From IMG/VR virus record IMGVR_UViG_3300045988_166496, positions 1 to 42,947 of that record: a stretch of 42,947 nucleotides of DNA; one strand, 5' to 3'. Position numbers and translations under genes: made by a program. Shown here piece by piece: positions 120 to 27,589 of this stretch; position 1 is the stretch's first letter, and the number at the start of each line of letters is the position of its first letter. The stretch comes from a virus. The notes under the pieces were generated by a model, which made no database searches, was not told where the DNA came from, and was given only the letters and a program-made list of their open reading frames with translations.

Positions 120-442
120 GCTTGAGCTAAGAAATAATAGCCTCTTATAGCATCATCTCTTAAAATATCCTTTTCTGAACCTTTTAACCAATTTACTATC
201 GCTATCTTTAAATAATTCATTTTTTCTTTGGAATAGTCCATTATATCAAATACATATGTTATAACTCTCTCCCCATATGGTACATCCCCATAAAGGGCGG
301 TAAAATCATACTCACCTTGCATAAATGGAACACTATCTTTTACATAGTTAACAGTTGGTATACCAATTTCTTTAGATTTTATAGAAATTCCAAAATCTTT
401 ATATGAATGTTTATCTTTAAATAAAATTCCATATCCTATCAT
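1..442 (-). CDS. Distal tail protein (Dit, Sipho_tail-like), N-terminal part. The gene continues in frame at 42828..42572 in the circle (699 nt, 232 aa in total).
   Basis: ATG at 442 overlaps the TMP stop (ATGA). My translation is MIGYGILFKDKHSYKDFGISIKSKEIGIPTVNYVKDSVPFMQGEYDF... It runs off position 1 and sits immediately after the tape-measure gene. Confidence 0.75.
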   Translation of the reverse strand, partial: MIGYGILFKDKHSYKDFGISIKSKEIGIPTVNYVKDSVPFMQGEYDFTALYGDVPYGERVITYVFDIMDYSKEKMNYLKIAIVNWLKGSEKDILRDDAIRGYYFLAQASEHSFKEDGLIGELTIKFTCYPFKIGNEKEGEVLWDDFC

Positions 443-3239
443 ATATTTACACCTCTATTAGATAAGTTTACCCTTTCTCCTTGGATTAACTCTAAGAATG
501 GTGCTGCTACTTGTGCTAAAACTTGGCCATTTGGCATAACTAAATCTATTTTAACTTGCTCAGGCATTTTTATTTGTTCATTTTGTTTTTCAGATATATT
601 AATGCCATTACTTCCTATTGATATATTTCTCATTAATTCTGTTCCATTATTTATAGTATCTTTTATTTTTCCTAAAAGATTTATAGAAGATCCTACTGGT
701 ATATCTGCATTTTCATCTATACCTACGCCTATTCCTTCTACGATTCCCTTACCTATAATGTCCCTCATTACCTTTGAAGGTGAATTAATTTTAAATGAAC
801 TTTGGAATCCTTTTACAACTCCATTTGCAAATGAAGAAATTTTATTTTGTAACCAACCTCCTGCGCCAGTTATTCCACTCCATATTCCTTTAACAATATC
901 TCTTCCTATGTTGGCCATTTTACTTGGAATAGATTTAAGGCCGTTAACAAGTTTATTTTTAAAATCATCTGCAGCCTTTTTACCTCTTTGTGAAAATTGT
1001 GTTGCAAAATTAATAGCTTTTTGTATTGTATTATTAAGCCATGTCCACACTCTGTTCGGTAAAGTCTTTATAAAATTTATAACATACTTTACAAAATTTG
1101 AACCTGTTTGTTTAGCTTTACTAAGCATCTGTGTTCCCCATGTAGTAACTCTAGTATATGTATTTGTAAGCCACGTCCATACTCGACTTGGTAAATTTCT
1201 GATAAAATTTATAAAATTCTTCACAAAGTTAATACCTGTTTGCTTAGCTTTATTAAGCATCTGTATTCCCCATGTAGTAACTCTAGTATATGTATTTGTA
1301 AGCCATGTCCATACTCGGCCTGGCAACTGACTAAACCAATTCCCTATTGATTCTATCCAAAGTGGTACATTTGTAGCAAAATAATTCCATGTATTTACTA
1401 TCCAACTTGCTATCGTTCCAAGTGCTACTCCTAATGCATATCCTATTTTGGCAGGTAATTGATTAAACCAATTACCAATACTACTTATAAGATTTATTCC
1501 CCATTGTATAAAAGAATTATATGTATTAGTACACCAATTCAGTATACCTTGTAATACTTCTGATAATTTATCTAATATTACTTGACCTATTCCTAAAAAT
1601 ATTTCTTTTATGACATTCCATAAATCTGTAAGTATTTGTGTAGCATTATCTTTTAAATGTGTGAATAATCCTTTAATTCCTTCAAAGGCGCCTTGCCAAT
1701 CACCTGTTAAAAGACTAATCATTATAGATATTGAATCACTTATATAGTCTACTATTAAACCAAACGAATCTTCTATAATTGCATATAAATCTATAAATGC
1801 ATCTCCAAAATAGCCATTTATGCTGTATCCCCATTCAATCAATGGTTCAAGTAAGTTTCCTAAATCATTTGCAAAAATGTCCTTTAAAGCATTTGTACCA
1901 TCTAATAGCAATTGCCTAATACTTACTATTATGTTTTTAAAATCACCTTTTAACTTTTCACCTAATTTTTTAGCATCTTGAGATAACTTATCAAAATTAC
2001 CCGAAAATAAATCTTCAAGTAATGTTTTTACGCCACTTATTAAATCACTAAAAAAAGTTTTAAATGAACCAAAAATATTCATCAATGAATTAAACGCTGT
2101 TTGTACACTTATTGGAGCTTTTACTATTACATTAAGTATATTATCCCATAAATTAATGAAGAAGTTTCTAAATGCTTCACAATTATTCCAAAGATAAATT
2201 ACTGCTGCAACTATAGCTACAATAATCGCTATAATTGGGTGCGCTGCTATTAATCCAAATAGACCACTAATTGCGCCTTTAATACTTCCAATAATACCTG
2301 TTATTCTAGCAAAATTCAGTCCCTTCAATCTTATATAGAGTCCTATTATATTGGATAAACCTGTTGCTATAGCTCCTATTAATATAAGTAAAGGTCCTAT
2401 TGCTGCTATAACCACTCCTATAATAGCTATAGTTGTCTTTGTTCCACTACTAAGTCCATTAAATTTTTCTACTAATACTTGTACTACTGATACAATTTTC
2501 TTTATGGCAGGCAATAAAGCTTCACCTATACTTATCGCTGCACCTTCAAGTGCACTTTTTAATGATGTTATTTGACCATTTAAATTATCTTGCATTGTAG
2601 CAGCTACATCATTTAAAACTCCATCGCAGTCACCAAGTTCTGCTGATAAGCTATCCCACTCTTCTGATGCACCAGATAATAATGCATTTAATGTATCTAA
2701 TTGTGTTTTACCACCAATCATAGCCAGGTATGTATCTCTTTGTTCATTTGTACATGTAGATAACTTTTGATTTAATTCATCAAATACAACTTTCAAGCCT
2801 TTAAATTTACCATCACTATCATATGCACTTATTCCTAACTTTTTCATAGCCACACCAGCTTGACCTGCTCCTGATGTTAAGTTGACCATTATTGAGTTGA
2901 GTGCATTACCAGCTTCACTACCTTTTTTACCTCTATTAGCTAAAACCCCTAAAGCAGTTGCACTTTCTTGTGTGCTTACTTTTAGGTTTTTCATAGTTCC
3001 ACCGCATGCTATATAAGCTTCTAACATAGCATCAGCTGTTGTATTACTTTTTCTTTGTGCTTGTGCACAAATATCTAAATAACTTCCTAAGTCTTTTACT
3101 TTTATTCCTAATGCCGACATACTGTCAGTAACGAGGTCTGATGTTCTGGCCAAATCGGTACCTGCTGCCTCACTTAATCTTAATATCGGTTCAATTCCTC
3201 CGAGCATTTGCGAAGTATCCCATCCGGCGAGAGCCATGT
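439..3239 (-). CDS. Tail tape measure protein, exon 2 (the spliced product with 3617..4259 is 1147 aa)
   Basis: ORF track 439..3258. It has the core MALAGWDTSQMLGGIEPILRLSEAAGTDLARTSDLVTDSMSALG typical of TP901-type TMPs, a long hydrophobic middle and W-rich C-terminal repeats. The 5' boundary is set by the splice model. Confidence 0.85.
1020..1325 (-). repeat. About 2.3 tandem copies of a 132-bp (44-aa) unit inside the tape-measure gene
   Basis: The anchor 'aagcc' recurs at 1036, 1168 and 1300, an exact 132-nt period. The peptide LP(G/S/N)RVWTWLTNTYTRVTTWG(I/T)QML(N/S)KAKQTG.NFVK..INFI is repeated. Confidence 0.85.
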
Positions 3240-3616
3240 CGAATGTTATTAACGTCAAGTTCTTTATCTTGACCTCTGGAGGTTTCCCTCATTTGAAATT
3301 ATCTCATCAACTTGTTAATTCAAGTCCAGTCTAGGGTACGCTTTTATCACATGTATTCATTTCTCAGAATACATGGCTTACTGATAGGGGACACTCATGG
3401 GGAAATTATATTCTATATAGTATCTCAACTAAATAGTTTCATTCCCAACTCGTTACGATGCCTATAACATTTTAATATTATAGGTTATCTCGGCACCAGG
3501 ACACTACACCCTCTTCCGATATTGCCCCCTCATATACCATAACCTACCTGTAAGCTTTCGTTATGGTCGCCACCAACTTTATTCCCAAGTGTATTAACAG
3601 AATAAAGTTCTTTTTT
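3240..3616 (-). ncRNA. ORF-less intervening sequence in the tape-measure gene, a candidate group I self-splicing intron (about 377 nt, junctions uncertain by a few nt)
   Basis: Its removal joins ...KESADALS-Y-MALAGWDT... in frame. It starts after a U and ends with a G. It is GC-richer than the flanks. Stems seen on the plus strand: 3575-3583/3601-3609, 3536-3543/3560-3567, 3350-3358/3367-3375, and a GAGG-GAAA-CCUC tetraloop hairpin at 3279-3290. Confidence 0.6.
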
Positions 3617-4259
3617 AGCTTAATGCATCTGCACTCTCTTTCGCACTTTTAGATGTACTTGCTCCCATTTCCTTTGCCTTTTGTTCTAAAGCTTTTAAAT
3701 CATCTCCTGTTGCTCCACTTATTGCTTCTACATTACTCATAGATGATTCAAAATCTGCAGCAGTTTTTACACTTACTGCGCCTACTCCAGTTATTGCGGC
3801 TGTTACTGGCAGTAATGCTTGTCCTGCATTTGTACATTTACTTCCAAAATCGGCTAAGTTTTCTTTAGCTGAAATTAAGCTTGCATCTACAGTTGTTCCA
3901 AAATTTCTAGCTTCTCTTTCTAAACTTTCTAGCCTTTGCTCTGTTGCTGCTATTTCTCTTTGAAAATCTCTATATTGTTGTTCTGTAATCTCTCCTCGCT
4001 CAAATTGTGCTTGAACTTGTTGTTGTGCATTTTTTAGTGTGTCTAATTTTTCTTTTGTCCTTTGTATAGATTGTGAGAGAAGATCTTGCTTCTGTTTTAT
4101 TAAAGTTACGTTTGAAGGGTCGTATTTTAAAAGTGTATTTACACCTTTTAATTCTTTTTGCAAACTTCTAGTTTGTGTATCTACATCCTTTAATGCATTA
4201 CCTAATTTGGTAGTGTCTCCACCTATTTCAATAGTAATACCTTTTAATGCTCTTCCCAT
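3617..4259 (-). CDS. Tail tape measure protein, exon 1 (N-terminal coiled-coil part)
   Basis: ORF track 3615..4259. The sequence begins MGRALKGITIEIGGDTTKLGNALKDVDTQTRSLQKELK... The in-frame stop is supplied by the first intron nucleotides. RBS is GGGAGGAG. Confidence 0.8.
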
Positions 4260-4869
4260 TATTCTCCTCCCTTCTTATATTTTTTTCTTAACTTATCACG
4301 TTCCGGCTTAGTTTGTTCAAGTCTATAAGCATTTTCTAAATACTCTCTTCCTTCTTTTGTCTTTTTACATGTACCGATAAATATATCTCTTCTCAAGATC
4401 AAATAATCTACAATATCAAGTTCTAAAACTTCATATATACTTAAATTTGTATTTATAGCAATTTCTCTTAACCAAAACGTATTATCTTCATAATTAAATC
4501 CCGCATCATCTTCATCTGACGGATAATACGGGAGCTTTAGTTTTTTTCATCTACTATATTACTCACAAACTCCATATAGGCCTCAAAGAATTGTATGATA
4601 TCTTCAAAATCTAATAATTCCTCAACTTGAGCTTGTGTAATTTTTTTACCATTTTTATTTCTATTCAATATATCTGTACATGCTGAATACAAATCATTCA
4701 TAGCTTCTTTATTTTCCTGTGTATCTTCTTTTATTAACTCTTCCATATTCAGTAATTTATCTAATATTTTTTTAGTTGGTGTCATTAAAAATAATTTAGT
4801 TTGATTTTCATCAGCTAATGTAACAGTTATTGTTTTTTTTCTTGTATTATTAAAATTAAATTGACTCAT
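4259..4869 (-). CDS. Tail assembly chaperone, -1 frameshift fusion (gpGT-like, about 203 aa)
   Basis: An open -1 frame without a start codon runs from 4540 to the stop at 4259-4261 (LKLPYYPSDEDDAGFNYEDN...KKYKKGGE*). It is reached through the A_AAA_AAC heptamer. Confidence 0.65.
4537..4869 (-). CDS. Tail assembly chaperone (gpG-like, short form)
   Basis: A 110-aa acidic protein between the major tail and tape-measure genes. RBS is AGGAGG. It ends in a slippery run. Confidence 0.75.
   Translation of the reverse strand: MSQFNFNNTRKKTITVTLADENQTKLFLMTPTKKILDKLLNMEELIKEDTQENKEAMNDLYSACTDILNRNKNGKKITQAQVEELLDFEDIIQFFEAYMEFVSNIVDEKN
4540..4546 (-). promoter_or_regulatory. Slippery heptamer A_AAA_AAC for a programmed -1 ribosomal frameshift
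   Basis: Minus strand reads GAT GAA AAA AAC TAA. It fits the X_XXY_YYZ pattern in the zero frame, directly before the gpG stop. Confidence 0.6.
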
Positions 4870-12600: not shown

Positions 12601-12999
12601 TTACCTCTTTTTATCTTTTTTCTTTATAAATTTACCATGTTTTTTATTATGACAACGTACACATAAACACTCTAAATTATTATAATCAAGTCGTCTTTCC
12701 CAGCCTTCATCGGTCTGTATTGGTACTATATGATGTACTTCTGTGGCTATAGCACCACACTCTTCACATCTATATTGTTTATCTTGTGTGTACTTCATGG
12801 ATAACATTCTCCATTGCGAACTATTATAGAATCTAATATATTTGGGATCTCGTTTCTTATTGTAATTCTTTTGAGCCTTTTTATTAGCTTCCTCTTTTCT
12901 TTTCTCTCGTTGTTTATTAATTGCACTCTGACAATCATTACAATACACCAATGGATATGGTATAAACTTTCCACACTTCTTACAAACCTTTGTTAACAT
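12601..12999 (-). CDS. HNH endonuclease (terminase-associated)
   Basis: CEECGAIATEVHHIVPIQTDEGWERRLDYNNLECLCVRCHNKKH, plus an N-terminal CxxC..CxxC. The ATG at 12999 is preferred over the TTG at 13005. Confidence 0.85.
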   Translation of the reverse strand: MLTKVCKKCGKFIPYPLVYCNDCQSAINKQREKRKEEANKKAQKNYNKKRDPKYIRFYNSSQWRMLSMKYTQDKQYRCEECGAIATEVHHIVPIQTDEGWERRLDYNNLECLCVRCHNKKHGKFIKKKDKKR

Positions 13000-13216
13000 T
13001 ATCAACTAACTCCCTTTTAAAGATATATTCTTTTATTTTATAATCCATAAACTGTATATCTTCTGGTGTTACTAAATACATTTTACCTCTATCATCTTCT
13101 ACTAATCCTTTTGTCGTTCCATCTCTTTCAATAATCCATTTATGAAATAGTGCTTTTTCTTTTCGTATTAAACATGGTCTTAACTCTACTTCGATACTTA
13201 TTACACTGTTTGCCAT
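12980..13216 (-). CDS. Hypothetical protein (78 aa)
   Basis: ORF in the operon orientation. No motif recognised. Confidence 0.5.
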   Translation of the reverse strand: MANSVISIEVELRPCLIRKEKALFHKWIIERDGTTKGLVEDDRGKMYLVTPEDIQFMDYKIKEYIFKRELVDNVNKGL

Positions 13217-13231
13217 TATAATCCCTCCAAT

Positions 13232-13267
13232 AAAAAAAGAACCTTAGTTAATATTACTAAAGGTTCT
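13232..13267 (-). terminator. Intrinsic terminator-like hairpin
   Basis: agaaccttagt / actaaaggttct stem, with a T7 run on the minus strand. Confidence 0.5.
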
Positions 13268-13276
13268 TTAACTTAA

Positions 13277-13576
13277 TTATAAATACTTTGCATATTCTTC
13301 TTTTGTAAGTTTATATTTTTTATTACATTCCTTACATGTAATAATCCCTCCACCTTTTATAATTCCTATAATACCAAGAAGTACAAATACACATGTTAGA
13401 ATTATAAATATAGGTAAACATATCCAACCTATAATAGGAATCCAAATCGAAGCGCAAATACCTAAGAAGCATATAATAGCACTTGCAAACTTCGATGATG
13501 CAGTTGAAGTTATACTTGCTTTTTTACCACACGAAGGACATTTTACTGTATTTGAGTTACTTTTAATTTCTTTCAT
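13277..13576 (-). CDS. Small membrane protein flanked by zinc-ribbon CxxC pairs
   Basis: MKEIKSNSNTVKCPSCGKK...two hydrophobic helices...CKECNKK. Start at ATG 13576 after AGAGGTGA. Confidence 0.6.
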   Translation of the reverse strand: MKEIKSNSNTVKCPSCGKKASITSTASSKFASAIICFLGICASIWIPIIGWICLPIFIILTCVFVLLGIIGIIKGGGIITCKECNKKYKLTKEEYAKYL

Positions 13577-13628
13577 ATATATCACCTCTTATTTCAATTA
13601 TATATGAATAAGAACTATTAGCCAATAT

Positions 13629-13928
13629 TTATTTCAATTCTAACAATAAGCTTCTTAAGTTTTCTTTATATCCTTCATCTTTAACTATCCTAATTAGGCT
13701 TTCTATTTCCCAATCTTTCGGTGTGTTAGGTAGCTTTTTACGTACTGCTAAATCTATTAATGACTTAGCTTTACAGAATGTTCTTATATGTGTATGACCA
13801 TCTCTAAACTTCTTTTTAGTATTATGAATTATATATCCCTTTTTTACTTTATATATTGTAAATTCCTTCCTTTGATATATCTTCTTAGCACCTTCACTTT
13901 TATCGAAGTTTGGTTTTTCACGCATCAT
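13629..13928 (-). CDS. Hypothetical protein (99 aa), first gene after the late leader; start uncertain
   Basis: ORF track. The RBS is weak. The frame stays open for 38 sense codons upstream without an ATG, GTG or TTG. Confidence 0.5.
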   Translation of the reverse strand: MMREKPNFDKSEGAKKIYQRKEFTIYKVKKGYIIHNTKKKFRDGHTHIRTFCKAKSLIDLAVRKKLPNTPKDWEIESLIRIVKDEGYKENLRSLLLELK

Positions 13929-14032
13929 TTCTTCTAGTTTCCAGTAACGTTCTGGAACTTCTATCGTAGCTGTAATAACCTCATTAATATCTTTATAAAC
14001 TTTCCCACCTTTTTCAACTCCTTTAATAAAAT

Positions 14033-14066
14033 AAAAAAGGACTACTTAAATTAAGTAATCCTTTTT
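14033..14066 (-). terminator. Strong intrinsic terminator between the sigma-like activator gene and the late genes
   Basis: aggactactta-aat-taagtaatcct hairpin at 14038-14062, with a T-run on the minus strand. A second hairpin, gtgtca/tgacac at 14068-14084, precedes it. Confidence 0.7.
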
Positions 14067-14189
14067 CGTGTCATTTTCTGACACCTATCAAATCAGTGGT
14101 ATTTTAAATGTTTTTTATTATTTATATAGTAACACAAGTTATGTACACTTTGTGTCTAATATTTGTCTAAATTTAATACATTTTTTGTA

Positions 14190-14624
14190 CTAAATAACTT
14201 TTTTTATTTTTTCTATAGCTTCTACTCTTATTTTCTTGCAATTTGAAGTAGAATTTTCAAGCTTATCAGATATTTCTATCCAAGTTTTATCCTTAAAATA
14301 TCTTAACTCTATAATCTCTTTTTCTAATCTATTTAATACTTCTAAAGCATTATCTATTATTTTTACTTCTTTTACAGCCTTTGATTTTTCTCCTAATAAT
14401 CTATCATATTCTTCATCATGATAAAGTAACCATTGTTCTATCGGTGATGAATTAGTTGGACTTGTCATTACTCTATCATAGCTTATTCCTTCTTTTATGT
14501 ATCCACCTCTTATATATTTATCTTCTATAGCTTCTAGTTCTATTGTTTTATTCTTGATAATAGCTTTATTATATGTATATTCATATAGCTTACGTTCTGC
14601 TTTTATATATGCACTATCTCTCAT
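14190..14624 (-). CDS. Late-gene transcriptional activator, sigma-70 region-4-like (ArpU/RinA-type)
   Basis: A 144-aa ORF with the C-terminal sequence LEKEIIELRYFKDKTWIEISDKLENSTSNCKKIRVEAIEKI. It is the last gene before the late operon. Confidence 0.65.
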   Translation of the reverse strand: MRDSAYIKAERKLYEYTYNKAIIKNKTIELEAIEDKYIRGGYIKEGISYDRVMTSPTNSSPIEQWLLYHDEEYDRLLGEKSKAVKEVKIIDNALEVLNRLEKEIIELRYFKDKTWIEISDKLENSTSNCKKIRVEAIEKIKKVI

Positions 14625-14648
14625 AACATCCCCCTAGACTTAATATTT

Positions 14649-14813
14649 TTATTCTTCTTCCTGTTCTTGCGCTTCCTCCTCAAATGCTAAAGGCCCTTCA
14701 CCAAATAGTTGATAACAAGCTTCTTCATTTGGAAACATAAATTCACATCTACAACCTGTTTCTGAACATTGATAACCTTCATCTTCATCGAATTTTGAAA
14801 ATCTACATCCCAT
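14649..14813 (-). CDS. Small Cys-rich acidic protein (54 aa, not in the ORF track)
   Basis: GGAGG RBS, and its ATG overlaps the upstream stop (TAATG). Sequence is MGCRFSKFDEDEGYQCSETGCRCEFMFPNEEACYQLFGEGPLAFEEEAQEQEEE. Confidence 0.5.
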   Translation of the reverse strand: MGCRFSKFDEDEGYQCSETGCRCEFMFPNEEACYQLFGEGPLAFEEEAQEQEEE

Positions 14814-18051: not shown

Positions 18052-18630
18052 TTAATCGATATCTAATAAGTACAATATTGCAGCTTCTTTACAGTCATGT
18101 TTTTTTATTTTCTTTTCACCTTTTTTATTGCATATACTCAAATATCCATCATTATTTTCTATATAAAACAATCCTCGTGGATATCCAGTATTAATCATGC
18201 CAATAAAATCGCCTGGTCTAATTTGTTTTAACTTTATCTTTTTTTCACTCACAATATAATTATTTATTATTTTGTAGTTTTCTATTTTTGTTAACTTACA
18301 TCTAGATATATTTAATTTTTCGGATGCTACCTTTTTACTTTCAAATTCATATTTTTTATTAAGATCCATATCATATACATAAGTTTTTTTATTATGTGAA
18401 TTATTTTTATTTTTCTTAAATATTGTTTCTAATTCTGTTTTTCCCCCTGATGCTCTAAGTTCTTTTATTTCCTTTATTCTTTTTTTAGCTTCTTGTTTAT
18501 CTTGTAAGGTAGTAAAGTTTGGAATATCTTTACCACCTTCTAAAATTGTGTATGCAAGTGCTAAATAGTTATCATATAAAGGCTCTTTTTCCTCATAATA
18601 CCAACTCATAAAATCACTCCCATTACTCAT
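18052..18630 (-). CDS. Hypothetical protein (192 aa)
   Basis: ORF in the operon. A NUMOD-like segment (KVASEKLNISRCKLTKIE) is possible. Confidence 0.5.
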   Translation of the reverse strand: MSNGSDFMSWYYEEKEPLYDNYLALAYTILEGGKDIPNFTTLQDKQEAKKRIKEIKELRASGGKTELETIFKKNKNNSHNKKTYVYDMDLNKKYEFESKKVASEKLNISRCKLTKIENYKIINNYIVSEKKIKLKQIRPGDFIGMINTGYPRGLFYIENNDGYLSICNKKGEKKIKKHDCKEAAILYLLDID

Positions 18631-19249
18631 CGTATCTGTTAGCTATTTTCTTTTGTTTTCTCTTACTAATTTTCTTTTTAGTCCCAATCTTTTTATTTAT
18701 CTCATGTGTTTTCTTATTAAATTGCAAATTTTTATAAAAGTCTTTTGTACTTTGAGATTGTTTTAAGTTATCAATATCTTCTTCTGTTTCAAATGCAAAA
18801 GGACAGTTAGGTTGACTTTCTAATCCTGGTACTAAGCTTTCTAAGAAGATATTGTATATATCACATTTATCACATGGCATCTTACAGTTATTACATCTAA
18901 ATGTGATTGTTTCTGTTACAAGAGTTTTTATATCGTCGTCTGACATCTTTATACTGTTATATTCGTCAAATGTTCTTTTTTCTAAAGCTTTTGCTCCCTC
19001 TACTGACATTATTTTTACTTCAAAGTTTTTAGCATGTTTTACTAATTTATCTTTTTCATGCTCTGGCATTCTACTTACAATACTTACTAATGCATTATTA
19101 GTCATAGTTATACTTGTTTTTAGCTTTCTTTTTTCTTCTGATGTTAAATTATTTTTCCAAAGGTCCATAATGTTATCAAGATACATTGTTGTTGTCATTG
19201 CTAATAGCCAATTATCTCTTTCCTTTCTACTTAAATAATTTTTAGTCAT
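18623..19249 (-). CDS. Hypothetical protein with a Cys cluster (208 aa)
   Basis: FRCNNCKMPCDKCDIYNIF and a basic C-terminus. It lies directly downstream of parB. Confidence 0.5.
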   Translation of the reverse strand: MTKNYLSRKERDNWLLAMTTTMYLDNIMDLWKNNLTSEEKRKLKTSITMTNNALVSIVSRMPEHEKDKLVKHAKNFEVKIMSVEGAKALEKRTFDEYNSIKMSDDDIKTLVTETITFRCNNCKMPCDKCDIYNIFLESLVPGLESQPNCPFAFETEEDIDNLKQSQSTKDFYKNLQFNKKTHEINKKIGTKKKISKRKQKKIANRYDE

Positions 19250-19261
19250 TTAAAACACCCC

Positions 19262-20281
19262 CTAGCCTGGAAATTCAGATTCTAACATATTTTCTATTTC
19301 TAACCATATTCTTATTTGTTTTTTACATAATCTGTCTGTTACTTCTTCTGTATTATAAAAAATACATTTACCTTTACTTCCAATCGGACAAATTTTACAT
19401 TGTCGATTTATCATTCTAAACATGAATTCTGACATATATATCGTGTCAAATGTTTTAATTTTATCTAAATTACTTATTTTTTTATTTTCCACTTCTATGT
19501 TTTCTAATGCTTCCTCAACATCTATTTGACCTTTTATATTTTCATTTTTAAATTCTTTTTTAAAGTCTTTAATATTTTGTACTTTTAGATCACCTATGTT
19601 GTCCTTTGTTTTCTCATATATTTCTTGTTGCTTTTCCTTGTCTATCCCAGCAATTTCGTTTGCAGTTGCAAAATTTATATTTCCTTCGTCTAATTCTTTT
19701 CTAAAGTCATTATGTAAATTATTATTTATATTTTCCATCTGGGCTACCTTTGTTTTACTGACACCTAGTATAGATGCAACTACATCCCTTAATCTTCCTT
19801 TACTTAGGTCATATCCTTTTAACTGTTTACCTTCTTGTTTCATCTTTTGAAGATTTGTTTTTAACTTAGCTTCTTCCTGTAGCATTTCATTAACTGTTTT
19901 CACTCTACTACTATTAGCAATTATAATTTCTATTTCTTCTTCCTCTTCTGATGCTTCTTTTTTAATTTGACAAGTTACATATTCATACTCTTTATGTCCC
20001 TTTTCATACAGGCTCTTTAAAGCTTCTAGTCTACGTTCCCCAGATATTAATTTATATTCTTTACCTTCTTTTGGTTCATAAACTACTACCAAGTTGGACA
20101 TAAGTCCAACAAGGAGTATACTATTTGCTAATTCTTCTATATCAATGATTTGATAGAAATTTTTATCATTTCTATAAATGTTAAATATACTAATATCTTT
20201 TGTTCTAAAATTCGCTGAAGGCTTATCTTCTACTACATTTTTACTATTATTATTCAAACTATCTAAAATATTAAATGCCAT
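19262..20281 (-). CDS. parB: ParB-like partition / nuclease-domain protein
   Basis: ...YKLISGERRLEALKSL... ParB N-terminal box. Its start abuts the parA stop. Confidence 0.75.
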   Translation of the reverse strand: MAFNILDSLNNNSKNVVEDKPSANFRTKDISIFNIYRNDKNFYQIIDIEELANSILLVGLMSNLVVVYEPKEGKEYKLISGERRLEALKSLYEKGHKEYEYVTCQIKKEASEEEEEIEIIIANSSRVKTVNEMLQEEAKLKTNLQKMKQEGKQLKGYDLSKGRLRDVVASILGVSKTKVAQMENINNNLHNDFRKELDEGNINFATANEIAGIDKEKQQEIYEKTKDNIGDLKVQNIKDFKKEFKNENIKGQIDVEEALENIEVENKKISNLDKIKTFDTIYMSEFMFRMINRQCKICPIGSKGKCIFYNTEEVTDRLCKKQIRIWLEIENMLESEFPG

Positions 20282-25936: not shown

Positions 25937-27589
25937 ATGAAAATAGCAATTTACTGTAGAGTTTCAACTCATCATCAAATAGATAAAGAATCTTTACCTT
26001 TCCAAGAACAGGATTTAAAAAATTATTGTAAATGTGTATTAGGTAGTAATAATTATGTTGTTTTTAAAGATCCTGGGTATTCTGGGAAAAATACAGAACG
26101 ACCAGATTTTAAAAATATGTTTGAAAGAATAAGAAAAAATGAATTTACTCATTTACTTGTATGGAAAATAGATAGAATTTCTAGAAATTTATTAGATTTT
26201 TGTAGCATGTATAACGAGTTAAAACAATACAATTGCACATTTATATCTAAAAATGAGCAATTTGACACTTCTTCTGCAATGGGTGAAGCAATGCTAAAGA
26301 TAATTCTTGTTTTTGCAGAACTCGAAAGAAACTTAACATCTGAAAGAGTATCTGCTATTATGATTAATCGTGCTCAAGAAGGTCGTTGGAATGGTGCTAA
26401 TGTTCCTCTAGGGTATTATTGGGATGATTCTTCTGCTTTTCCATTAATAGATAATGCAGAATCAGAAATAATAAAGTCTATTTATAATATATATGAAAAA
26501 GAACAATCTGCTAATAGAGTTCTTAATTATTTAGTGGAAAATAATATTAAAACTAAACGTGGAGGTAATTGGACTACTAAAACCATCTGTGATGTTATAA
26601 GAAATCCTTTTTATATGGGAACATATAGATATAATTATCGTGAATCTGCAAGAGGTAAATTAAAAGATTCCAGTGAATGGATTATAAAAGAAAATAATCA
26701 TCAGGCCATAATTTCTAAAAAGCAATGGCAAAAATGTAATGATATTATGGATGAAAATGCTCGAACTAATCACAGTAAAAATAGAAGATATAATCAAATT
26801 CATATTTTTAGAGGATTATTAAGATGTAATGTATGTGGTGGTAATATGTATGGTGCTAAAGATAGACCTAGAAAAGATGGATTTCGTCCATCAAGATATC
26901 GCTGTTCTAATTCTCATAAAGAAACTTGTAATACTAAAATAGTTACAGATGTAACTTTAGGTCCATTTGTTATTAATTATTTAATTAATTTTATAAATCT
27001 TATAAATAATAGTAAACAAATAAATAGTATAGATGACATTAAATCTTTTTTATTAAATGGTACTGATTTTAAAGATATTGATTTAACTGAAGATACTTTA
27101 TTTAATATATATGTGTCTTTAAACATAAATAATAAGCTTATACCTTTACCAGATACAGAAAGTAAAGATATGAAAGTAAATAGTGAAGAAATAAAACTAA
27201 CTAGAGAAATAAATAAATTTAAAAAAGCCTTAGAAAGATTAGATGATCTATATTATTTTGATGAAAAGGGTATTAGTGAAAAAGATTATTTAATAAAGAA
27301 AAAAGATTTTGAAAATAAATTAAATGATGCTAATAATAAATTAAAATCTATATCTGAAAATGAGCCTACAAATTTTTACGATTTTGATTTTTTAAGTTCA
27401 GCTTCTGAATTTTTATTACAAAATAATATAAAAAAACATATAGACTTTAAGATGTTTTACATGACTATAGATAATGAAAAAATATATAATTTTGTAAAAT
27501 CATTAGTTAAAGAAATTTTTATAAATGAAGATGGTTCTATATATTCTATAACCTTTAAAAATGGTTTAGTACATTATTTTATTTACTAA
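25937..27589 (+). CDS. Large serine recombinase (integrase type)
   Basis: MKIAIYCRVSTHHQ resolvase catalytic N-terminus, a recombinase domain, a CNVCGG..C..C zinc ribbon and a long coiled-coil C-terminus. 550 aa. Confidence 0.9.
   Translation: MKIAIYCRVSTHHQIDKESLPFQEQDLKNYCKCVLGSNNYVVFKDPGYSGKNTERPDFKNMFERIRKNEFTHLLVWKIDRISRNLLDFCSMYNELKQYNCTFISKNEQFDTSSAMGEAMLKIILVFAELERNLTSERVSAIMINRAQEGRWNGANVPLGYYWDDSSAFPLIDNAESEIIKSIYNIYEKEQSANRVLNYLVENNIKTKRGGNWTTKTICDVIRNPFYMGTYRYNYRESARGKLKDSSEWIIKENNHQAIISKKQWQKCNDIMDENARTNHSKNRRYNQIHIFRGLLRCNVCGGNMYGAKDRPRKDGFRPSRYRCSNSHKETCNTKIVTDVTLGPFVINYLINFINLINNSKQINSIDDIKSFLLNGTDFKDIDLTEDTLFNIYVSLNINNKLIPLPDTESKDMKVNSEEIKLTREINKFKKALERLDDLYYFDEKGISEKDYLIKKKDFENKLNDANNKLKSISENEPTNFYDFDFLSSASEFLLQNNIKKHIDFKMFYMTIDNEKIYNFVKSLVKEIFINEDGSIYSITFKNGLVHYFIY

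Follow-up and report, generated by a model that had tools for sequence, protein, structure and literature searches.

Group I introns in phage tape-measure protein (TMP) genes have been described since 2008, when IA1 and IA2 introns were reported at three TMP-gene sites in prophages of the Bacillus cereus group, namely TMP-IVS1, TMP-IVS2 (IA2) and TMP-IVS3a/b (IA1) (PMC2504315). Several of these introns have no complete homing-endonuclease gene, and they are optional among related phages and can occupy more than one site per gene (PMC2504315). More generally, P7.1/P7.2 and an extended P9 domain (P9.0, P9.1) are features of subgroup IA, specifically of IA2 (PMC4227781, PMC3984707), and numerous group I introns of bacteria and phages are known to have an in-frame stop right after the 5' exon (PMC3984707). 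Two further systems are linked to the present locus by sequence: AR9/PBS1 gyrA (KU878088), whose CDS is joined from three pieces, and the TMP gene of phiCD211/phiCDIF1296T (C. difficile), in which ~580 nt of non-coding sequence separate two CDS and which, in LN681537 (phiCD211), has a misc_RNA Intron_gpI annotated between the two TMP pieces. With such introns on record since 2008, the locus described here would be an ordinary case, and one further example of a known pattern in which introns occupy the best-conserved motif of a structural gene that is essential.

The window is the whole 42,947-nt stretch analyzed (IMG/VR record IMGVR_UViG_3300045988_166496, positions 1 to 42,947); its ends overlap by 119 nt, so that the contig closes on itself and has the appearance of a complete genome. 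Positions 3240..3616 on the minus strand very probably constitute an IA-type group I intron, carrying no endonuclease gene, that would be spliced from the TP901-family TMP gene of a ~42.8-kb temperate siphovirus-like gut-metagenome phage. What was observed or computed comprises the exact in-frame restoration of the gene, the secondary structure and covariation of the insert, its homology to a large family of introns, and the optional presence of the intron among related TMP genes.

An earlier note on this DNA, drawn up by reading the sequence, had proposed that two minus-strand ORFs are parts of one TMP gene, interrupted by a candidate group I intron whose removal would join the exons at 3617|3239. 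Both ORFs were recovered with the ends and coordinates given there: ORF 3615..4259 (-) terminates in ...KSAKESADALS*, and ORF 439..3258 (-) begins at a TTG start with the N-terminal sequence MTLITFDMALAGWDTSQMLGG. Deletion of 3240..3616 (-) (377 nt) produced the single 3444-nt ORF that had been claimed, encoding 1147 aa with one terminal stop and reading ...ADALS-Y-MALAGWDT... at the junction. Exon 1 (3617..4259 (-)) thus supplies 214 codons and the first base of a Tyr codon, and exon 2 (439..3239 (-)) supplies the last two bases of that codon, 932 codons and the stop, giving a junction codon U|AC in the predicted spliced mRNA and ligated exons that read GCAGATGCATTAAGCT|ACATGGCTCTCGCCGGATGGGA. 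Without splicing, the reading frame of exon 1 ends at a UAA that spans the 5' splice site (AGC U|AA). The 2.8 kb of exon 2 are free of internal stops and the frame is kept exactly across the junction; upstream, the ATG of exon 1 overlaps the stop of a 47-aa ORF (4259..4402).

Protein-family profiles were divided in the same way by the insert. TIGR01760 (tape_meas_TP901) matched with its positions 1-62 at the C-terminus of ORF 3615..4259 and with positions 65-347 at the N-terminus of ORF 439..3258, and matched the spliced product continuously over positions 1-328 with 224.3 bits (curated cut-off, 28.8 bits), which places the spliced TMP in the TP901 family. Likewise, the PF10145 match covered positions 24-201 with 129 bits in ORF 439..3258 and extended to positions 1-201 with 150.4 bits once the exons were joined. 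In the separate ORF, the TIGR01760 match from position 65 and the PF10145 match from position 24 both start at the very beginning of exon 2.

A search with the junction region returned hundreds of TP901-type TMPs. All of the aligned uninterrupted homologues (27/27, 46-63% identity) passed the junction without a gap and had Tyr at the junction codon, and among 46 related TMP loci in IMG/VR most were continuous across the insertion site. The empty site was found exactly at the nucleotide level in intron-less IMG/VR TMP genes, for example GCAGATGCTCTTAGCT|ACATGGCATTAGCTGGTTGGGA in L198. As most related TMP loci have the empty site, the intron is optional and its removal must be exact. Conversely, an intron ~80% identical to that of the window occupies the same TMP site in three IMG/VR contigs (L020, L003 and L087), and the intron of the window recurs without a single base change in contigs of five samples; ERZ27229848, SRR31518515 and SRR25645338 are among the samples carrying this phage. 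GenBank phages gave no match to 20 kb of the window by megablast, nor did representative genomes to an exact 47-mer from the intron.

These alignments bear directly on the reading in which the window encodes two true, separate tail proteins of 214 aa and 939 aa, with a structured non-coding spacer between them that is never removed. Gene callers do annotate two TMP genes in every contig returned with this intron, and ORF 3615..4259 has a stop codon of its own. Such an arrangement is nevertheless highly improbable, given that a single profile, TIGR01760, is cut at 62/65, that the aligned homologues and most of the related loci just described run through the site as one protein, with Tyr at the junction in the homologues, and that the supposed spacer matches an intron family found in many unrelated genes (see below). 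The earlier note had named related phages with two separate proteins meeting at these points as a refuting case; one continuous TMP was found there instead.

The insert is therefore treated below as an intron, with intron position p corresponding to window coordinate 3617-p. As had been noted earlier, on the minus strand it follows a U (3617) and its last base is a G (3240), and it contains no ORF in the sense orientation: there are 9-14 stops per sense frame, and no open stretch exceeds 28 codons. All sense frames were checked and no homing-endonuclease ORF was found, so that the insert lacks this attribute of a mobile intron; the only ORF of at least 40 aa within it is antisense (3312..3467, 51 aa). 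The earlier description of the insert as GC-richer than its flanks held only barely (36.9% against 35.0% in exon 1 and 32.0% in exon 2); the insert is, however, richer than the genome average (28.0% for the whole window). Its computed fold (-108 kcal/mol) was better than that of all 100 dinucleotide shuffles (-85.3 +/- 5.1 kcal/mol; z = -4.45). An A stands both at the start of the intron and at the start of exon 2, which leaves the junction ambiguous by 1 nt. The boundaries 3617|3616 and 3240|3239 are singled out by the group I rule (a U before the intron, a G at its end), by the U·G wobble of P1 and by P9.0.

The helices expected of a group I intron were located along the insert, including the P1/IGS and P7 pairings that had escaped detection by eye. 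P1 and its extension span 3569..3619 (-), with pairs given by the minimum free energy fold and a layout as in both AR9 gyrA introns. P1 itself is formed by exon bases G3619-C3618-U3617 and A1 (3616) with U45-G46-G47-C48 (3572..3569), and the wobble U3617·G46 (U(-1)·G46) marks the 5' splice site; exonic pairs number just three, and P10 has two pairs. The P1 extension comprises 9 bp between intron positions 8-16 (3609..3601) and 34-42 (3583..3575), in which a C-G pair is replaced by U-A in L087. P2 is a hairpin at 3536..3567 (-) (intron 50-57 / 74-81) whose 16-nt loop is almost invariant in the four same-site introns, with changes on both sides of the stem at four positions when the window, L020 and L087 were compared. 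An alternative guide, the L2 loop AGCUUA, is complementary to exon UAAGCU; it was rejected, since U·G at the splice site would be replaced by U-A and since the AR9 guide lies directly 3' of the P1 extension.

The core is enclosed by P3 (intron 87-93 / 225-231, within 3386..3530 (-)), which contains a G-C pair that is A-U in L020 and which encompasses P4 (98-101 / 124-127), P5 (105-109 / 115-119), P6 (128-130 / 158-160), P6a (133-139 / 150-156), the 5' strand of P7 and P7.1/P7.2. That P7 strand (3448..3453 (-)) consists of A164, bulged C165, G166, A167, G168 and U169, and P7 is formed by A164-U284, G166-C283, A167·C282, G168-C281 and U169-A280; G166-C283, which lies beside the bulged nucleotide, is the candidate guanosine-binding pair. 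P7.1 (171-175 / 213-217) and P7.2 (181-188 / 197-204), the former enclosing the latter, fall between P7 and P3' at 3400..3446 (-). The P8 hairpin (242-250 / 259-267) occupies 3350..3375 (-) and shows A-U in the window and U-A in close relatives, the wider family being poorly aligned there. It is followed at 3333..3349 (-) by J8/7 (268-279, UGAUAAAAGCGU) and the 3' strand of P7 (A280-U284), for which the family consensus is AAAAU-GUAYGCU, or in some members AUAUAGUCU, resembling the classical S element.

The extended P9 domain (3241..3331 (-)) comprises P9.0 (G286-A287 / U375-C376), a 2-bp helix directly before the omega-G; P9 (288-290 / 339-341); P9a (292-296 / 303-307); a small optional hairpin (312-315 / 319-322); P9b (327-338), in which GAGG and CCUC flank a GAAA loop; and P9.1 (344-349 / 358-363). 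The final intron base, position 377 (3240 (-)), is the omega-G, and AR9 introns end in G at the equivalent place. The five stems picked out in the earlier note all exist and correspond to the P1 extension, P2, P8, P9b and P9.1. Two other candidate pairings for P7 were abandoned. That of the conserved CCA-N-GAGU just before P3' with the S-like element was dropped because GUAACGC(A/G)UA covaries perfectly with UA(U/C)GCU, and a CUGG/CCAG pairing proved to be P9.

Two mismatches distinguish this copy. A167·C282 in P7 adjoins the candidate guanosine-binding pair and is replaced by A-U in close relatives and C-G in the rest of the family, and U185·U200 lies in P7.2 at a position where close relatives are properly paired. 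With the window mismatched and its close relatives paired, A167·C282 is apparently the sole P7 non-pair among the 42 sequences aligned below; it is no assembly error, since the intron sequence is identical in the contigs of five samples. P7 of this copy is accordingly not all-canonical; full canonical pairing of P7 does not define the class, but the departure bears on activity.

Covariation was assessed at two depths. Among the four same-site introns, compensatory changes were seen in the P1 extension, P2, P3, P6a, P7.1, P7.2, P8 and P9a. In a 42-sequence family alignment, 83.1% of cells were paired, against 33-42% in slid controls in which the 3' partners were moved by one to three columns, and the covariation score was 0.447, against at most 0.106 in the same controls; neither value was reached in any of 500 shuffles. 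Changes on both sides were found in 6 of the 7 pairs of P3 (76% of cells paired), in 9/10 pairs of P6/P6a and in 3/5 pairs of P7 (99.5% of cells paired). Every pair of P7.1 showed both-side changes (97.6% paired), 84% of cells were paired in P7.2, and P9a (99.5%) and P9.1 (99.6%) carried many double changes. Across the P7 bulge, A-U changes to G-C within the family (GUAACG...GCU vs GUAGAG...GCC), as expected for a guanosine-binding site. The group I features found in the insert thus include the U·G in P1, the terminal omega-G, a P3/P7 pseudoknot core supported by covariation and a G-C pair beside the bulged nucleotide of P7, together with removal that restores the gene exactly. P9.0 covaries across the family and, followed by G, was present in 89 of 119 distinct relatives (25 +/- 4 in shuffles), which fixes the 3' splice site.

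The family to which the intron belongs is large and interrupts many unrelated genes. Exact copies of the 20-mer at intron positions 324-343, AATGAGGGAAACCTCCAGAG, occur in no fewer than 119 stretches of IMG/VR and, among representative genomes, in 47 stretches that nearly all belong to Clostridia; as the invariant family 20-mer, AAUGAGGGAAACCUCCAGAG, it has exact matches in more than 160 contigs, of phage and Clostridia, whose relatives of the intron support the helices above by covariation, and by means of it the analysis delimits an easily recognised intron family. A covariance model (R1) was built from 31 relatives over the region from P4' to P3'; the training set had been assembled through the 3' motif alone and contained neither the window nor its close relatives. 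Applied to the window, R1 gave a single significant match at 3385-3501 (-) (73.2 bits, E = 1.2e-15). The next matches (26509-26663, E ~1.3-1.6) lie within an intact serine-recombinase ORF and were regarded as noise.

Rfam searches behaved differently from R1. No group I match (RF00028) was obtained for the whole window at the gathering threshold or around the insert at E <= 10, and group II models were unmatched in the same searches; the lone match, manA-II on the opposite strand (19.9 bits, E = 0.68), was noise. The lack of any covariance-model match, named in the earlier note as a refuting case, thus does not apply, the match coming from the family-specific model rather than from Rfam. In control searches, the T4 td intron scored 40.3 bits, under its 50-bit threshold, and T4 nrdB, the two AR9 gyrA introns and the annotated phiCD211 intron were all unmatched at E <= 1. 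Since the same library misses the nrdB, AR9 and phiCD211 introns, its negative result carries little weight here: RF00028 is insensitive to this subgroup and misses the whole intron family. The main value of the present case lies in annotation: gene callers split the TMP in every carrying contig while Rfam is silent, and for these reasons split tail genes of metagenomic phages of Clostridia are likely mis-annotated in the same manner. The structure, supported as it is by covariation, could be a starting point for a model that detects IA-type phage introns with greater sensitivity.

Comparison with the AR9 gyrA introns, whose junctions are fixed by GyrA conservation (…IIG|EYHPHG…, …DAHG|NFGS…), placed them in the same family: R1 scored 81-87 bits against the two, and by BLAST the 3' half of the insert matched the gyrA introns of AR9/PBS1. 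The AR9 3' domain, AAAUGAGGGAAACCUCCAGAG-hairpin-GUUAAUAAC, is nearly identical to that of the window, with compensatory changes in P9.1. P1 is laid out in the AR9 introns as it is here, with a U·G wobble at the 5' splice site, and the two introns terminate in G; their P1 pairs exon GGU with guide GCC, where exon GCU pairs with guide GGC in the window, so that the middle pair covaries. They differ in host gene (gyrA), in a shorter P2 and in a different P5. In phiCD211, BLAST matched the middle of the insert to the sequence interrupting the TMP gene; the first part of that sequence is homologous to the P3-P7.2-P3' core described here (69% identity; R1 88.5 bits). The phiCD211 insert is longer, has no conserved 20-mer 3' domain and lies elsewhere in a much larger TMP; as its annotated Intron_gpI segment is downstream of the homologous part, it may be composite.

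The IA2 introns of T4 td, T4 nrdB and Twort orf142 share with the window P1-P9, P7.1/P7.2, an extended P9 and an in-frame stop just past the 5' exon (PMC3984707, PMC4227781). Those of T4 td and nrdB contain endonuclease ORFs, unlike the window intron, and P7.2 is here nested in P7.1 as one bipartite stem, in contrast to characterised IA2 phage introns. R1 had no match in the T4 introns or in the first 50 kb of Twort, so that membership in group I rests on architecture rather than on detected homology to bench-proven ribozymes. With P7.1/P7.2 between P7 and P3', and P9.0, P9, P9a, P9b and P9.1 all present, these hallmarks point to subgroup IA (IA1 or IA2) as the probable assignment. The Bacillus TMP introns likewise belong to subgroup IA, are of the self-splicing type and lie in conserved parts of the TMP (PMC2504315). 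Compared by description, the present case differs from them in that the phage is a low-GC gut phage and the relatives of the intron are almost entirely from Clostridia; there was no B. cereus-group record among the 47 genome matches to the 20-mer.

Other kinds of element were weighed for 3240..3616: group II introns, IStrons, miniature transposons or remnants of an IS, and signals for translational bypass as in T4 gene 60. A compact, highly structured insert would also fit a miniature transposon or a bypass element. Nothing specific speaks for any of these, and the reading is exceedingly improbable. The insert, at 377 nt, is far under group II intron size and unmatched by group II models; its junctions show no target-site duplication and no terminal inverted repeats; and it contains no IS component and no ORF. 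The T4 gene 60 bypass hop is 50 nt, which a 377-nt gap far exceeds. What covaries is a set of group I helices, with a pseudoknot of P3 and P7, a U·G pair and a G at the 3' end.

Accepting a group I origin, it was also considered whether splicing has been lost or is very poor, in which case the window would hold a TMP pseudogene in a defective prophage, or a phage that manages with two fragments. This is distinctly unlikely, although the A167·C282 non-pair by the P7 guanosine-binding pair, apparently alone there among 42 sequences, the U·U mismatch in P7.2 and the lack of a homing endonuclease for intron upkeep would all agree with it. The remaining helices are all intact, neither exon is interrupted by a stop and the frame is exact across the junction, and the intron is unchanged across contigs of five samples. 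The contig, moreover, looks complete from its 119-nt overlap, and intact exons in a contig that closes into a circle argue for a viable phage. Direct reading of the sequence before the TTG and the ATG of exon 2 showed no Shine-Dalgarno-like sequence, which makes translation of the TMP in two pieces unlikely. An A·C pair can, furthermore, form a wobble shaped much like G·U. It is conceivable, though unlikely, that A167·C282 makes splicing weak or conditional (on pH or Mg2+, if the A·C wobble is protonated, or on an assisting protein) and that the intron is a regulatory switch for tail assembly, throttling or timing full-length TMP, with a separate 214-aa coiled-coil N-terminal fragment made from UAA-stopped unspliced RNA.

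For the preferred reading, a functional group I intron, the following path is proposed from the anatomy of the intron and established group I chemistry, catalysis and splicing in vivo being predicted on that basis. A single pre-mRNA would be transcribed from the TMP gene, and the UAA across the 5' splice site would halt ribosomes on exon 1, leaving the intron free to fold. P1 would arise when the guide U45-G46-G47-C48 pairs with exon GCU and A1, the wobble U3617·G46 defining where cleavage occurs, and an exogenous guanosine held at G166-C283 of P7 would attack after U3617. P9.0 (G286-A287/U375-C376) and a weak 2-bp P10, formed by exon-2 A-C with G44-U45, would then bring G377 into the same site, and the 3'-OH of U3617 would attack after G3240, joining ...AGC U to AC AUG.... 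Translation of the ligated mRNA would yield the 1147-aa TMP with its conserved ...ADALS-Y-MALAGWD... motif. The predicted exon-exon junction reads are GCAUUAAGCU|ACAUGGCUCUC and GCAGAUGCAUUAAGCU|ACAUGGCUCUCGCC, and the predicted full-length TMP would include the peptide ...ESADALSYMALAGWDTSQMLGGIEPILR.

Introns of the same family as the 377-nt intron predicted at 3240..3616 (-) occupy other sites in related tape-measure protein (TMP) genes, namely those of L221 / L029 (IMGVR_UViG_3300045988_115336), L212 (…114409) and L220 (…137887). The L029 intron ends eight codons upstream of the TMP intron site of the window (…|SQCADALSYMALAGWD), and the L212 intron and an L220 intron lie ~37 codons deeper into the TMP domain than the window site. 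In both of these phages the intron core is ~1 kb away from the TMP break, and the intron may for that reason carry an ORF. Two introns are present within the single TMP gene of L220.

A gap of ~580 nt (L002 2484-3067; LN681537 28598-29181) also separates the CDS annotated as 'Minor tail protein' from that annotated as 'Tail tape measure protein' in Clostridium phage phiCD211. Positions L002 2532-2655 match the P4'-P3' core of the window intron's family at 88.5 bits, and a GenBank Intron_gpI feature with its own R/S-like elements is located at L002 2777-3042; this annotated match was not reproduced in the Rfam search. Unlike the window intron, the phiCD211 gap is without the 3' domain marked by the conserved 20-mer. 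The gap thus looks composite, and its arrangement could be chimeric or twin.

Many family members (e.g., L013 and L056; alignment A2 columns ~58-105) carry in P5 the core motif of the 11-nt receptor for GAAA tetraloops, CUAAG...UAUG, whose presence would fit docking of the invariant P9b GAAA loop. In the window and its close relatives, as in the AR9 introns, P5 is instead short and plain (AGGGU/GUCCU or similar).

Sensitivity of Rfam RF00028 was assessed using two introns of phage T4 (L127; nrdB, 12956-14720; td, 18236-20113). The td intron scored 40.3 bits, below the gathering threshold of 50 bits, and no RF00028 match at E <= 1 was returned for the nrdB intron; many IA-type phage introns will therefore go unnoticed when annotation relies on Rfam defaults. 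Weak second and third matches of the intron-family model in the window, both inside the serine recombinase ORF at 25937-27589 (+), were rejected as noise.

The window probably represents a complete phage genome of ~42.8 kb: bases 1-119 are identical to bases 42829-42947, the characteristic mark of a circular contig assembled at k=119. ENA contig ERZ27229848:k119_258972, equal in length to the window, matches it, and the same genes are present on a 42,883-bp contig of another sample. Given its large serine recombinase (550 aa; domains Resolvase, Recombinase and Zn_ribbon_recom), the phage is probably temperate.

The region separating the putative major tail gene from the TMP gene contains two ORFs (4259-4869, -), one of 110 aa (4537..4869) and a short one of 47 aa (4259..4402); by coordinates the stop of the 47-aa ORF overlaps the TMP start codon. 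No Pfam domain passed the curated threshold in either ORF; together they look like a pair of tail assembly chaperones linked by a programmed frameshift. A long antisense ORF (602..1330, +), unlikely to be a real gene, overlaps a tandem repeat at 1023-1317 (unit 132 nt, or 44 aa; 2.2 copies; 85% identity) within the TMP's C-terminal half (...RVWTWLTNTYTRVTTWG...). Repeats of this kind are common in tape-measure proteins.
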